Sequence record: NC_054917.1
Length of the DNA: 64,000 nt
Reading direction: 5' to 3' (one strand)
Origin: Escherichia phage vB_EcoM_G50
Below, piece by piece: positions 2,448-56,648 of this stretch (its first letter is position 1; each line of letters begins with the position of its first letter). The translations under genes were made by a program, and so were the position numbers. A model generated the notes under the pieces. The model did no database searches. It saw only the letters and a program-made list of their open reading frames with translations, and was not told where the DNA came from.

Positions 2448-2979
2448 TATTGGCTCATCCATTCTTTACGAAGGTCAGCATTATCTCCCATGAGCATTTC
2501 AAAAAGCTCTTTCCAATTCTCAGGAAGTTTAACAACATCATATACTGGGTTTTGAATCATCTCACGATATTCAGATTTTTCCAAAGAGCCAAGTCCCTTA
2601 ATATAACGGATGCTATGTTTAGGTAGAGCATCTTTGGCACTCTCATATTCAGCGACTGTATAAAACCATTCTTGTTTTTTACCGACCTGAGCGATGATTA
2701 CAGGAGTTTTGACAAAGCGAATTCTTCCTTGTTCAAACAGTTCTGGCCAATTACTAAAAAATCCGAGCAGAGAAGGATAAATAGAACCTAATCCAATAAT
2801 CTCTTAATTATGAGGTATTTCTATGGATAGCCCGAAGGCTATCCATCGTGATCTGCGTCTGTCATAATAGCGACATTCGCATAGTTCATTGAAGAGGATT
2901 TAATAGAACGACGAACATTGTTCTGCAATTTATATTTTTTCATATCAACGCTAGAAGAATCAATTTTTACAAATTTCAT
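2447..2979 (-). CDS. 60: DNA topoisomerase II subunit gp60, translated across a 50-nt coding gap (ribosomal bypass)
   Basis: N-terminal 46 codons MKFVKIDSS...DADHDG end in GGA-TAG; translation resumes after landing GGA with LGSIYPSLLGFF...KEWMSQ; matches T4 gp60. Confidence 0.9.
2792..2841 (-). other. gene 60 translational bypass element: stop codon, UUCG hairpin and 50-nt gap ending in landing GGA
   Basis: Minus strand GGA UAG CCUUCGGGCUAUCCAUAGAAAUACCUCAUAAUUAAGAGAUUAUU GGA UUA; take-off GGA at 2842-2844, landing GGA at 2792-2794. Confidence 0.88.
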
Positions 2980-5355: not shown

Positions 5356-5375
5356 GCTAAAGGCCCGAAGGCCTT
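5356..5375 (-). terminator. C(UUCG)G hairpin directly after the 39.1 stop
   Basis: Plus aaggcccgaaggcctt; minus-strand RNA GGCC-UUCG-GGCC. Confidence 0.5.
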
Positions 5376-5645
5376 TTATTTAAAACGGATAGTCGAATCC
5401 TTGAAGAATAGACCAGAACATACTGTTCCTTCTACTTTCTGCCCGGTAGGTCCAATAGCACGAAATCCAGTATGCTGGAAATCATTTTCAGAGCAACCGA
5501 ACCAATTATATCCAGTGATTTCAATATTAGTAAAACCACTTGAAGACAAAACTTTGGTTGCATTATCAGCATCAGTACATCCTACTAAAGATACTGCTAA
5601 TACTAATGCCGCGATAGAACGATTAACATATTTCATAATTTTCAC
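5376..5645 (-). CDS. small lipoprotein (39.1 position)
   Basis: 89 aa; signal peptide with lipobox LVGC. Confidence 0.55.
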   Translation of the reverse strand: MKIMKYVNRSIAALVLAVSLVGCTDADNATKVLSSSGFTNIEITGYNWFGCSENDFQHTGFRAIGPTGQKVEGTVCSGLFFKDSTIRFK

Positions 5646-15760: not shown

Positions 15761-15784
15761 AAAAAGGACTCCCGAAGGAGTCCT
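15761..15784 (-). terminator. rho-independent terminator after soc
   Basis: GGACUCC-UUCG-GGAGUCC hairpin followed by U6 on the minus-strand transcript. Confidence 0.65.
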
Positions 15785-15789
15785 TGAAT

Positions 15790-21669: not shown

Positions 21670-22014
21670 TTAAAAGAATTTAAATTTTTTCTTTGACCTT
21701 TTATTAAATGCATCTTGTAGTTGCATTGTAATACATTTTTCTACATGAGGAGCTAACTCAGCTTTTCTTTCTTGGTCAAGAACAGCAAAGTCCATTACAA
21801 CCTTTCCATCAACCCAATCTAATTTTGTCACATACACAATGTGTGTAGAACCATCTTCTAGTTTAATGACAATCTCCTGGATAACATTTTCCATGGCAGA
21901 TTTAATTATCTTAAGAGATTCATTAAAAAGACGTTCTTTTCTTTCTTCTTCCCCCTCCGAAGAGGGGGATTCGTCGATAATTTCTAGATCTAAGTCTAAA
22001 TCATCTTTATTCAT
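21670..22014 (-). CDS. 40: gp40-like head assembly protein
   Basis: Position between uvsX and 41; start taken as ATG just after uvsX stop. Confidence 0.5.
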   Translation of the reverse strand: MNKDDLDLDLEIIDESPSSEGEEERKERLFNESLKIIKSAMENVIQEIVIKLEDGSTHIVYVTKLDWVDGKVVMDFAVLDQERKAELAPHVEKCITMQLQDAFNKRSKKKFKFF

Positions 22015-28552: not shown

Positions 28553-28574
28553 TTGATATATTATACTCCAAATA

Positions 28575-28590
28575 AGGGGCCGAAGCCCCT
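28575..28590 (-). terminator. C(UUCG)G hairpin
   Basis: AGGGGC-UUCG-GCCCCU on minus transcript, followed by UAUUUGG. Confidence 0.5.
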
Positions 28591-28595
28591 TTGCT

Positions 28596-30737: not shown

Positions 30738-30770
30738 AATTTCCTCATTCAAGTTTTAGTGTAAATTATA

Positions 30771-30786
30771 AAGGGCCGAAGCCCTC
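30771..30786 (-). terminator. C(UUCG)G hairpin between genes 45 and 44
   Basis: AGGGC-UUCG-GCCCU. Confidence 0.45.
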
Positions 30787-30788
30787 TA

Positions 30789-31475
30789 TTAAAAATCATG
30801 GGTAGAATCAGCTTCAAGAGCTACTACATAATTCGCATGTTCACCTTCAAATTTAGCAGCGCCTTGTTTACCTTTTGCCCAAAGCAGAAGTTTATAATTT
30901 CCTGGTTGCATTTTCATATTTGCCATATTGATAATGAAATTAAATGTGTTTTCACCATCATAATCACCAAGAGTCAAAGAATATTTAACACGAGTCAAAG
31001 CAGAATCTTCTACTTTATTAAAACCGTTAATTACGATTTTACCTTCTTTTACTGTGATAGCAATTGTATCAATCTGCAGACCGCGAGATACACGCAACAG
31101 CTGTTGAAGGTCTTCAGCTTTAATTTCGGTAACAACAGATGCTACCGGGAATGGAATTGGTTTATTAGGAGCAACTACTGTACTCGGATCGGCTGCTGGC
31201 CAAAAAATTGTTGAACGGGCATCAGCAATTTTAATATTTCCATCTTCTGACTGGGAAATTTCTGCATCATCATTAACTAGAGACAGAATACCGAGAAAAC
31301 CGTTCAAATCGTAAATTGCTACATCAAAATCAATAGTGTCAGAAATATTTGCTTCCGCGTAAGTTGTACCATTAACTGCGCGAGTCATAATAAATTGACC
31401 GGATTTAAGCATAATACCTGAGTTAATAGTAGCGAAATTTTTAAGCAGAGCAGTAGTATCTTTAGACAGTTTCAT
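30789..31475 (-). CDS. 45: sliding clamp gp45
   Basis: 228 aa; matches T4 gp45. Confidence 0.9.
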   Translation of the reverse strand: MKLSKDTTALLKNFATINSGIMLKSGQFIMTRAVNGTTYAEANISDTIDFDVAIYDLNGFLGILSLVNDDAEISQSEDGNIKIADARSTIFWPAADPSTVVAPNKPIPFPVASVVTEIKAEDLQQLLRVSRGLQIDTIAITVKEGKIVINGFNKVEDSALTRVKYSLTLGDYDGENTFNFIINMANMKMQPGNYKLLLWAKGKQGAAKFEGEHANYVVALEADSTHDF

Positions 31476-35319: not shown

Positions 35320-35480
35320 ATATCAAGAACCGTCATTGAAATGCAAAATAAAATTATTGAAATAAATCCATCTGGAGTGCTAAAGAACCCAATCCAACAT
35401 GCTCTAGTGAATAGATAAAATGCAAGAAAAAGTATCACATATCCAAGAAATATCATTATATCAAACTCCGTATAAAGCTA

Positions 35481-35496
35481 AAGGGCCGAAGCCCTT
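35481..35496 (-). terminator. C(UUCG)G hairpin after alpha-gt
   Basis: AGGGC-UUCG-GCCCU adjacent to stop codon. Confidence 0.5.
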
Positions 35497-36698
35497 TATT
35501 TTGTAATAATGTCAAACTGTTCTTTAAAGCAGAAGCTTGAATCTTGATGCTGATACAAAAATTCATATGCTTTTTCTCGCTCACGGTCATAAAGAGCTCG
35601 GTCAGATGACAGTTCTTTAATACGTTCAAATGTTGATTCCATATCATTTTCATCAAACCAAATGATACCGCTATCATGCGAGGTCAAAGGAGTATTATCA
35701 ACACGGAATTTTAAATTTTCGCCAGTAGATTTCCAAAATACCGGAATTGTTCCACATGCACCAAGCTCGAGATGAGTATATTCTAAAGAACGTTGTAGAT
35801 ATTTTTTATCCAACTTACTCAACTGATAACCAAATCCGGATTTACTCATACGTTCAAGCATTTCGCTATTTACATAACGGTCAAGAATTTGCGTTGGCAA
35901 ATTAGGAGCAATTTTAATTTGGTCTACTTGATGAAGACGATAATATTCATATGGAATTCCCTTTTCTTTAATAGGAATGAACGCTGGAGAACGTTCCAGA
36001 CCTTCCATAATAGTACTTAGTCCTGCAGGTTTAAGATGTTTTTCGTGAAAATCAAACATCTGATAAAAACCTTTCCATGTAGTCGTACGACCAATCCAAC
36101 GGTTGATATTCATGTTAATTTCAGAAACATCTTTCCAGTAGGTTGATCGAACCTTCGCAATATCCATCGGAGGTTGAAAGTTATATACTGTCGGTGCTTC
36201 TTCAATATCATCAAACAGAGAAACAGTTTCTGGATACCATTCTTTCATCAGAACTTTATTAAAATCACCATTATCAGAATGGCTAAAAATAACATCAGCT
36301 CGACGAACAGTTTCTTCTAATCCCAAATTTCGACGCAAAGAAAGAGAAGAATGGTCATGCTGATAAACTATAACACGAACCGAAGGTTTAATGTTATCAA
36401 TAATTTTTTTATAGTTATTAATAGTGTCTTCTTCAACTGAAGTAGCAGGAACTGAATTGATAATTAGAATATCACAATCATTTACCAGCTTAAGTGTTTT
36501 ATCGTATTCTTTTGCCAATAAAACCGGAATTGAAAATGATTTATAATCATGTGCACAGTTACGAGTAAATGATTTATCTTTAGCATAAACCAAAGTTACT
36601 TCATGACCATTTTTAATAAACCAATCACGTTGCTCAAGAGAAAATTTAGTTACACCGCAACCTTCAAGACCTCGAGCCATAAAAATACATACTTTCAT
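35496..36698 (-). CDS. a-gt: DNA alpha-glucosyltransferase
   Basis: 400 aa; matches T4 alpha-gt in size and position. Confidence 0.85.
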   Translation of the reverse strand: MKVCIFMARGLEGCGVTKFSLEQRDWFIKNGHEVTLVYAKDKSFTRNCAHDYKSFSIPVLLAKEYDKTLKLVNDCDILIINSVPATSVEEDTINNYKKIIDNIKPSVRVIVYQHDHSSLSLRRNLGLEETVRRADVIFSHSDNGDFNKVLMKEWYPETVSLFDDIEEAPTVYNFQPPMDIAKVRSTYWKDVSEINMNINRWIGRTTTWKGFYQMFDFHEKHLKPAGLSTIMEGLERSPAFIPIKEKGIPYEYYRLHQVDQIKIAPNLPTQILDRYVNSEMLERMSKSGFGYQLSKLDKKYLQRSLEYTHLELGACGTIPVFWKSTGENLKFRVDNTPLTSHDSGIIWFDENDMESTFERIKELSSDRALYDREREKAYEFLYQHQDSSFCFKEQFDIITK

Positions 36699-36748
36699 TT
36701 AATATCCTCTTTGTTTTGGTTTATTTTACTAAAAATTTATAAAGCAAT

Positions 36749-36770
36749 ATAGGAGCCGAAGCTCCTATCC
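36749..36770 (-). other. GGA-UAG stop fused to an 8-bp C(UUCG)G hairpin (gene-60-like take-off motif)
   Basis: Minus strand GGA UAG GAGC UUCG GCUCCUAU at the end of the 57-aa ORF. Confidence 0.5.
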
Positions 36771-36938
36771 ACATAATACGCCATACAGAGGCTCATTAGA
36801 ACTTTTAAATTTTATGCGCTTATATGTTATAGTTCCTTCTGCTTTAGCTTTATCATGAGACTCTTTAAAGCGTCTCATCATTTCCTCTTTAGAGGAACGA
36901 ATTTTATTATAATCTATTTCAGAAGTCTGGGTGTTCAT
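36765..36938 (-). CDS. hypothetical small protein, 57 aa
   Basis: Hand-translated MNTQTSEIDYNKIRSSKEEMMRRFKESHDKAKAEGTITYKRIKFKSSNEPLYGVLCG. Confidence 0.4.
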   Translation of the reverse strand: MNTQTSEIDYNKIRSSKEEMMRRFKESHDKAKAEGTITYKRIKFKSSNEPLYGVLCG

Positions 36939-36941
36939 CTT

Positions 36942-37148
36942 TCATAACTGCCACCATTTTTTGACTTGATAAGAATCAACCCACACTTTCATATTAGGGT
37001 CTGCTCTTACAATAGGAGGATTAACTTCTTTAATTGAACTATCATGGTATTCTTTTTCAGAAATTTTCACACAAAGATGACCATTCAAAGATTCAGTAAA
37101 TCCTGCATTAATTTTAAGACGCTTGAATTTTACGTGTGTAAGCATCAA
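36942..37148 (-). CDS. hypothetical small protein
   Basis: 68-aa ORF. Confidence 0.4.
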   Translation of the reverse strand: MMLTHVKFKRLKINAGFTESLNGHLCVKISEKEYHDSSIKEVNPPIVRADPNMKVWVDSYQVKKWWQL

Positions 37149-38540: not shown

Positions 38541-38752
38541 ACATTCATCAACTTAGCCGCTTCAAGAGCTGCATCTAGTGAATCAAATTGGTCAACATAT
38601 TCAATCAATTCGCCATAATTGGCATATAACCACCATTGGCTAAATTCATACTCAAGGATGAATCCATTTCCTTCAATTTGAGTTAAACCATTGCCGTTTG
38701 TATTTACTTCATATCCGGCAAGACGCAAATCGTTAATAAGAGCTTCGTTCAT
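38537..38752 (-). CDS. hypothetical small protein
   Basis: 71-aa ORF, ATGA overlap. Confidence 0.4.
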   Translation of the reverse strand: MNEALINDLRLAGYEVNTNGNGLTQIEGNGFILEYEFSQWWLYANYGELIEYVDQFDSLDAALEAAKLMNV

Positions 38753-39119: not shown

Positions 39120-39135
39120 AAGGGCCGAAGCCCTT
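39120..39135 (-). terminator. C(UUCG)G hairpin
   Basis: AGGGC-UUCG-GCCCU followed by U4. Confidence 0.5.
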
Positions 39136-52600: not shown

Positions 52601-52630
52601 CGTTTTATGAAAAATTTTTGAAATAAAAAA

Positions 52631-52648
52631 GGGAGCCCGAAGGCTCCC
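52631..52648 (-). terminator. rho-independent terminator after the nucleotidyltransferase gene
   Basis: GGGAGCC-UUCG-GGCUCCC hairpin then U6AUUU. Confidence 0.65.
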
Positions 52649-52650
52649 TA

Positions 52651-56630: not shown

Positions 56631-56648
56631 AGTCTCCCGAAGGAGACT
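56631..56648 (-). terminator. rho-independent terminator
   Basis: GUCUCC-UUCG-GGAGAC hairpin then U6. Confidence 0.65.

Follow-up and report, generated by a model that had tools for sequence, protein, structure and literature searches.

The 3′ end of the small gene a-gt.2 in Escherichia phage vB_EcoM_G50 (NC_054917.1) raises the question of whether ribosomes terminate there in the ordinary way or may leave the message at a second take-off site resembling that of gene 60. At both loci, a UUCG-capped stem carries GGA and then UAG in its 5′ arm, and a matched GGA is found downstream. On the grounds of this shared geometry, the initial annotation of the 64,000-nucleotide stretch analyzed here (hereafter, the window) had proposed a gene-60-like take-off motif, which might be a decayed or abortive bypass cassette or, as a fallback, nothing more than a terminator hairpin sitting on the stop codon.

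The a-gt.2 gene end and UUCG hairpins in the window

The 1.1 kb around the hairpin matched 507 phage records, nearly all of them at 95–99% identity, and the window is a segment of a Tequatrovirus (T4-like) genome in which the genes 55, a-gt.5, a-gt.4, a-gt.3, a-gt.2, a-gt, 47.1, and 47 follow one another on the minus strand. The 57-aa ORF ending in GGA UAG was present as annotated (table 1), and its product matched Pfam DUF5486 with an E-value of 2.6e-41. The protein is 100% identical in Shigella phage Shfl2, and homologs of a-gt.2 were found in 831 phage records. On the minus strand, the last codons read UGU GGA UAG (TGT GGA TAG in the DNA), with GGA at 36770..36768 and UAG at 36767..36765; this GGA would be just the C-terminal glycine codon of the LCG tail.

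Near the a-gt.2 start (36905-36947, minus strand), we also observed a 1-nt indel polymorphism, represented by CACCCAGAC in the window, CATCCGAC in T4, and CACCAGAC in phages F1/JEP6. The indels in this region shift the start codon, giving rise to MNTQT... or M/VKDEH... forms. In F1 and JEP6, both belonging to Tequatrovirus, an extra A in an A-run ends the a-gt.2 ORF 40 nt upstream and the hairpin is unchanged; the shortened products are cut at ...RIKI, which is the natural end point of the Moon-like homologs. Given this coincidence of end points, the C-terminal 13–15 residues of the a-gt.2 product, including the glycine encoded by GGA, look dispensable, and homopolymer sequencing errors are a possible source of the indels.

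An 8-bp UUCG stem whose 5′ arm takes in the stop codon was confirmed. Written as DNA, the stem is perfect (ATAGGAGC-TTCG-GCTCCTAT); its 5′ arm begins with the A of GGA and continues through all three bases of the stop, and four of the eight base pairs are G-C. The isolated hairpin folded with −12.6 kcal/mol (z = −4.1), a stability reached by none of 200 shuffled sequences. A pattern scan labeled it terminator-like. The tail following the stem in the window (ATTGCTTT, with 5 T in 8) passes this terminator scan, yet it is interrupted, and the Tequatrovirus tail AUAUUGCUUUAU constitutes a weak U-tract, broken by two A residues in comparison with the Mosigvirus version. The label "terminator" was also found in five independent annotations (SP1, fPS-65, G4507, OE5505, and the equivalent Moon site), all of them software predictions. 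The 45 nt around the hairpin were recovered from 506 phage records, 484 of which exhibit at least 95% identity. A Rfam scan of positions 36500-37000 (E ≤ 1) returned no family, and the folding of a 141-nt context revealed no significant extra structure and no convincing 5′ stem-loop (z = −1.35). The terminator activity of the hairpin is something that we infer, since our search of the literature on T4 ribosome profiling or RNA 3′-end mapping gave nothing specific to this site, neither 3′-end nor termination mapping.

The T4 endoribonuclease RegB cuts at a GGAG core, and this motif occurs within the 5′ arm of the hairpin (36762-36765, minus strand). RegB cleavage at this motif was set aside and seems unlikely because GGAG is buried in a very stable stem.

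Table 1. Features at the a-gt.2/a-gt boundary and UUCG hairpins of the window; (-) denotes the minus strand.
Feature	Position (strand)	Sequence	Basis or remarks
a-gt.2 homolog, 57 aa	36938..36765 (-)		ORF list; Pfam DUF5486; synteny with T4 a-gt.2
8-bp C(UUCG)G hairpin at the a-gt.2 end	36768..36749 (-)	AUAGGAGC-UUCG-GCUCCUAU	Sequence, folding, terminator-pattern scan
MotA box	36740..36748 (-)	ATTGCTTTA	Fits the consensus (a/t)(a/t)TGCTT(t/c)A
-10 element	36723..36728 (-)	TAAAAT	11 nt past the MotA box; same -10 in T4
a-gt ribosome-binding region	36696..36711 (-)	AAGAGGAUAUUAAAUG	Holds GGA 36707..36705 and a-gt AUG 36698..36696
Hairpin at the a-gt stop (UAA)	35498..35479 (-)	UAAAGGGC-UUCG-GCCCUUUA	8 bp, −11.8 kcal/mol
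Gene 60 take-off stem-loop (comparator)	2846..2823 (-)	AUGGAUAGCC-UUCG-GGCUAUCCAU	T4 annotation and sequence
C(UUCG)G gene-end hairpin	5359-5376 (-)		0–7 nt from stop; overlaps stop
C(UUCG)G gene-end hairpin	15764-15785 (-)		0–7 nt from stop; clean U-run
C(UUCG)G gene-end hairpin	28574-28591 (-)		0–7 nt from stop
C(UUCG)G gene-end hairpin	30768-30789 (-)		0–7 nt from stop; overlaps stop
C(UUCG)G gene-end hairpin	39120-39135 (-)		0–7 nt from stop; overlaps stop; clean U-run
C(UUCG)G gene-end hairpin	52630-52649 (-)		0–7 nt from stop; clean U-run
C(UUCG)G gene-end hairpin	56631-56648 (-)		0–7 nt from stop; clean U-run
UUCG hairpin away from an ORF end	21950-21969 (-)		Sole exception; nearest stop 40 nt off

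In this genome, gene ends are built as a rule with the stop inside the 5′ arm of a UUCG hairpin. CTTCGG occurs 31 times in the window against 13.1 expected, a count that no shuffle reached, and the coding strand harbors 11 UUCG hairpins whose stems measure 6 bp or more; 10 of them are located 0–7 nt from an ORF stop. The stop overlaps the 5′ arm at five sites besides a-gt.2 (39135, 35498, 30789, 5376, and gene 60). One of these is the end of a-gt itself, where UAA opens the 5′ arm and a MotA-box-like AGCTTTA (35470-35478) follows directly 3′ of the hairpin, in the region to which the T4 middle promoter P47 (start 36576) maps. The a-gt end comprises the same terminator–promoter module as the a-gt.2 end, and the layout of a hairpin followed by GCTTTA was observed also at 5376..5359.

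Hairpins of the C(UUCG)G type were reportedly described between T4 cistrons by Tuerk et al. in 1988. The a-gt.2 hairpin shares with them the G+C-rich stem, the C-UUCG-G closure, the gene-end position, and the transcribed strand, and nothing essential differs; the only departure is the above-mentioned interruption of the Tequatrovirus U-tract relative to Mosigvirus. Further background on these T4 hairpins is available (PMC4371310), and the UUCG motif has been called "recurrent in T4 hairpins", as a transcriptional terminator or RNA stabilizer (Manning & Atkins, bioRxiv 10.1101/2022.08.31.505936).

On the coding strand, GGA makes up 1.56% of the codons and TAG accounts for 8 of 117 stops. From these frequencies, 117 genes should include about 0.12 that end in GGA-TAG, or about 0.01 when a neighboring hairpin is also demanded. 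The occurrence of GGA-UAG in a UUCG 5′ arm is a modest coincidence, spotted after the fact. As a last codon, GGA is somewhat favored (4 of 117 genes); two of the other three instances are contained in GAGGA, just upstream of an AUG that comes directly after the stop, and are read as the ribosome-binding site of the next gene.

Promoter sequence behind the hairpin and its conservation in Tevenvirinae

The 26 nt directly past the stem (36748..36723) read AT-TGCTTTA-N11-TAAAAT. MotA boxes conform to the consensus (a/t)(a/t)TGCTT(t/c)A and are located 12 ± 1 bp from the -10 element (PMC2988021). The combined pattern of MotA box plus -10 was detected 11 times in the window, with 2.6 expected, and the a-gt.2 site is among the 11. 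Among the T4 middle promoters, PmobB, previously named P-alpha-gt.1, starts transcription at 38682 (Table 1 of PMC2988021), which is 3 nt before the mobB ATG at 38679, and mobB is transcribed from a promoter in the upstream noncoding region (Edgell et al., PMC2988022). The window conserves the same MotA box and the same TAAAAT, placed as in T4 with respect to the stop of a-gt.2 and its hairpin, and alignment with T4 predicts the transcription start near 36717. Two differences were observed: the spacer between the MotA box and the -10 element is 12 nt long in T4 and 11 nt in the window, and the window promoter faces a-gt directly, mobB being absent, whereas the T4 transcript begins before the mobB AUG. 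Judged by sequence, the hairpin abuts the homolog of a MotA-dependent middle promoter, PmobB, which was mapped in T4.

Next to this arrangement in the window, we compared the gene ends in representatives of eight lineages carrying a-gt.2. As the MAFFT alignment of the gene ends put the hairpins out of register, independently folded hairpins were compared instead. In all eight lineages, a-gt.2 closes with a stable hairpin, folding at −10 to −15 kcal/mol, with differing stems and, sometimes, differing loops. Tequatrovirus combines the 5′ arm AUAGGAGC and a UUCG loop with the interrupted tail AUAUUGCUUU. The UUCG loop was likewise found in Mosigvirus (5′ arm AGGAACUC, tail of seven U), in Moonvirus (AAAGGGCC, UUUCU), and in Roskildevirus together with a Klebsiella phage (AAAGGGC, UUUUCU). 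The remaining loops are CUAGU or CUAGC in Gaprivervirus (GGAAAGGAAGC, six U), UUAG in Dhakavirus (AAAGGAGC, six U), and CGAG in Gelderlandvirus (AAGGGAGC, UUUG). Both arms have changed in sequence without loss of pairing, and in the lineages other than Tequatrovirus the stem runs directly into a stretch of U; this combination corresponds to the anatomy of a classic intrinsic terminator.

The codons on the stem behave differently from the stem itself. In Gaprivervirus and Dhakavirus, the gene ends read GGA AAG GAA GCC UAG and GGU AAA GGA GCU UAG, respectively, both with the stop in the loop, and in the Moon-like phages a-gt.2 is 15 codons shorter, its last codon and stop, AUU UAA, being part of the 5′ arm. 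Thus, the comparison of T-even genomes that the initial annotation had proposed yielded a hairpin kept in eight lineages and a GGA-UAG pair that is not maintained along with it. Since the hairpin is kept while GGA-UAG varies, the target of selection is the hairpin, as RNA or as DNA, and not the pair of take-off codon and stop.

The promoter sequence is also widespread. Beyond Tequatrovirus, the TGCT core was present in all compared genera but Gelderlandvirus (TGTT), with the full TGCTTT in five, and in most other genera the TGCT core and a -10 element come after the hairpin, be it followed by a-gt, by gene 47, or by a small ORF. Taken at the level of sequence, the a-gt.2 hairpin appears as one half of a conserved module composed of a terminator hairpin and a middle promoter.

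The gene mobB, located in T4 between a-gt.2 and a-gt, is missing from the window (36699-36748), and its distribution bears on the proposal of a decayed cassette. According to this proposal, the hairpin and GGA-UAG would derive from a mob-type homing cassette, having either come with the HNH endonuclease MobB or served as protection against it, in parallel to the 50-nt gene 60 insert with respect to MobA. Such an origin would agree with the insertion of mobB 51 nt downstream of the hairpin in T4 and a minority of relatives, and the MobB target is listed as unknown (PMC2988022). On the other side, the hairpin and promoter occur in 506 records and full-length mobB in only 26, both elements are also present in genera that possess neither a-gt nor mobB, T4, which has mobB, and the window, which lacks it, share exactly the same hairpin sequence, and the 50-nt spacer of the window contains no mobB-derived sequence. 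We consider it highly improbable that the hairpin is a mob remnant, and a mobB-cassette origin was rejected on this phylogenetic distribution, from which it follows that mobB was inserted behind a promoter already in place. The hairpin thereby predates the mobB insertion and does not depend on it, contrary to the initial idea of a decayed bypass cassette, and the window represents the common, uninterrupted state of the a-gt.2/a-gt locus.

In the mobB-plus phages, the spacer preceding a-gt and the first a-gt codons differ (MRICIF vs. MKVCIF), a difference that would fit co-conversion of flanking DNA.

Comparison with the gene 60 bypass

The features defining a bypass were taken from Manning & Atkins (bioRxiv 10.1101/2022.08.31.505936). 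The gene 60 take-off itself was found in the window as the initial annotation had indicated, with GGA UAG inside ATGGATAGCC-TTCG-GGCTATCCAT; a 50-nt gap and a landing GGA lie downstream. At position 2825 (minus strand) of this take-off stem, the window has C where T4 has T. The initial G of the take-off GGA, whose partner in T4 is this U, is thus in a G-C pair in the window, and the 10-bp stem is perfect (−17.0 kcal/mol).

For the a-gt.2 end to work as a programmed bypass of this type, peptidyl-tRNA-Gly would take off from GGA, with the hairpin folding in the A site, and would land on the GGA located 60 nt downstream in the a-gt Shine–Dalgarno region, whereupon UAU would be read and translation would stop at UAA; this may couple the translation of a-gt to that of a-gt.2. 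Besides a stable UUCG stem-loop with GGA and UAG in its 5′ arm, this scenario can draw on the matched GGA 60 nt downstream, which is in frame with the UAA adjoining the a-gt AUG, and on the rarity of GGATAG-N(1-6)-TTCG, found only twice in the window (0.42 expected), the other occurrence being gene 60. Matched take-off and landing codons are, however, trivially easy to come by, and the stop after the take-off codon, though present, is not conserved across lineages. In the a-gt.2 stem-loop only the A of GGA is paired, and the loop is situated 7 nt from the first base of the stop, against 5 in gene 60; the same geometry was observed at five ordinary gene ends and so is of no discriminating value.

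The nascent peptide offers a further comparison. The signal of gene 60 relies on key residues including Y16, Q19, V22, R24, Y33, M39, and T40 (Manning & Atkins, bioRxiv 10.1101/2022.08.31.505936), and the initial annotation had seen a loose likeness to it in the Lys-rich end of the a-gt.2 product. This likeness did not hold: BLASTP produced no alignment between the a-gt.2 product and the gene 60 N-terminal peptide even at E ≤ 100, and only one of nine key residues matched when counted back from the take-off glycine. At the landing side, no Shine–Dalgarno-like triplet was detected 5–7 nt upstream of the GGA at 60 nt, where all bypass cassettes carry it; here, GAG overlaps the GGA (AGAGGA, 36710..36705). 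The landing frame adds one residue only, and in T4, where mobB follows the same take-off, no GGA occurs until 93 nt downstream; the sequence past the hairpin is different again in the other genera. Both a MobA-type cassette and a topoisomerase context are absent from the a-gt.2/a-gt locus, and in a survey devoted to bypassing, the gene-60 type turned up in topoisomerase genes carrying the MobA element and nowhere else (Manning & Atkins, bioRxiv 10.1101/2022.08.31.505936).

The lineages that keep the hairpin argue in the same direction, as the take-off codon and stop are not conserved among them: the Gly codon of Gaprivervirus (GGA) and Dhakavirus (GGU) precedes Lys (AAG and AAA) and not a stop, the hairpin persists over the AUU UAA end of the Moon-like phages, and it is kept in F1/JEP6 downstream of an ORF that ends 40 nt earlier. 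In sum, the peptide signal, the spaced GAG, the coding continuation, the MobA-type cassette, and the topoisomerase context of gene 60 are all lacking at a-gt.2, so that most of the features that define a bypass speak against the analogy. With no peptide signal, no productive landing frame, and an unconserved GGA-UAG, a second gene-60-like take-off site is unsupported, and a functional programmed bypass at this gene end is improbable in the extreme.

The GGA codons downstream of the stop were also inspected for frames into which ribosomes could hop. The initial annotation had placed the nearest one about 60 nt away, which proved wrong, as a second GGA (36765..36763) overlaps the stop codon itself (GGA UA GGA G). 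The GGA at 60 nt is followed at once by a stop, as annotated (UAU UAA and then the a-gt AUG, translated G Y * M K V), and is part of the a-gt Shine–Dalgarno sequence. Neither landing GGA, at +5 or at 60 nt, opens a useful reading frame. The +5 re-pairing frame runs through the hairpin and the promoter for 13 codons (ASAPILLYKFLVK) before reaching UAA.

This overlap suggests another scenario, in which a low-level, unprogrammed +5 hop over the stop (GGA-UA-GGA), as a by-product of slow termination at the structured UAG-G, would yield a minor a-gt.2 isoform with a 13-residue tail (...LYGVLCGASAPILLYK). The matched GGA, the 13 open codons, and the short hops over slow-to-decode codons, stops included, that were reported in synthetic constructs (Manning & Atkins, bioRxiv 10.1101/2022.08.31.505936) are compatible with such a product; its tail differs, though, in T4 and Mosigvirus, leaving no conserved product, and the typical efficiency without stimulators is very low, making the isoform quite unlikely. 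It is likewise very unlikely that a small fraction of the ribosomes reaching the structured GGA-UAG-G site re-pairs at the +5 GGA or slides 60 nt, terminates at UAA, and re-initiates on a-gt. Were this true, the site would be a naturally occurring relative of the gene 60 take-off that works at low efficiency and needs no peptide signal; the comparative data argue against selection for such re-pairing or sliding, and none of the observations lends it positive support.

Proposed events at the a-gt.2/a-gt boundary

The observed hairpin, its position, recurrence, and covariation, together with the sequence identity of the promoter with the mapped T4 promoter, point to an ordinary T4-type gene-end C(UUCG)G hairpin (terminator and/or 3′-end protector) followed by a MotA/AsiA middle promoter, with normal termination at UAG. 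We regard this reading as very probable, and the comparative evidence favors what the initial annotation had kept as a fallback, that is, simply a terminator hairpin on the stop codon. That the hairpin terminates or stabilizes RNA in vivo, and with what efficiency, is what we infer.

In the arrangement proposed here, the hairpin would mark the 3′ end of the a-gt.5 to a-gt.2 small-gene cluster. For early transcripts coming from upstream, the hairpin would act as a partial terminator, or as a barrier that halts 3′ trimming and shields the RNA end, and RNA polymerase modified by MotA/AsiA would restart about 30 nt downstream, near the predicted start at 36717, for a-gt in the window, for mobB in T4, and for gene 47 or a small ORF in the genera lacking a-gt. 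The stop codon would be found in the 5′ arm because T4 packs its hairpins tightly against gene ends, and ribosomes are expected to terminate normally at UAG.

Interference between ribosomes and terminators is an established idea. Since the stop is inside the stem, a terminating ribosome would cover the 5′ arm, and leaky termination of transcription would be likely under tight coupling to translation. Transcription termination at this hairpin is probably partial, as the ribosome would be expected to hinder its folding, with which the weak U-tract AUAUUGCUUUAU agrees; given the interrupted Tequatrovirus U-tract, the hairpin may act mainly on RNA stability.

The a-gt.2 hairpin, therefore, belongs to a class of elements that is already known, in a region of the phage that has been well studied, and its stop codon within a UUCG 5′ arm calls for caution, as this is the standard layout of T4-type gene ends and no signature of bypassing. 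Because the layout is standard in T4-type genomes, gene-60-like take-off sites are not callable from geometry alone. At the a-gt.2 end, the module of terminator hairpin and MotA promoter is conserved over at least eight lineages of Tevenvirinae, irrespective of the downstream gene, and the insertion of mobB just behind the MotA promoter is confined to a small minority of phages.
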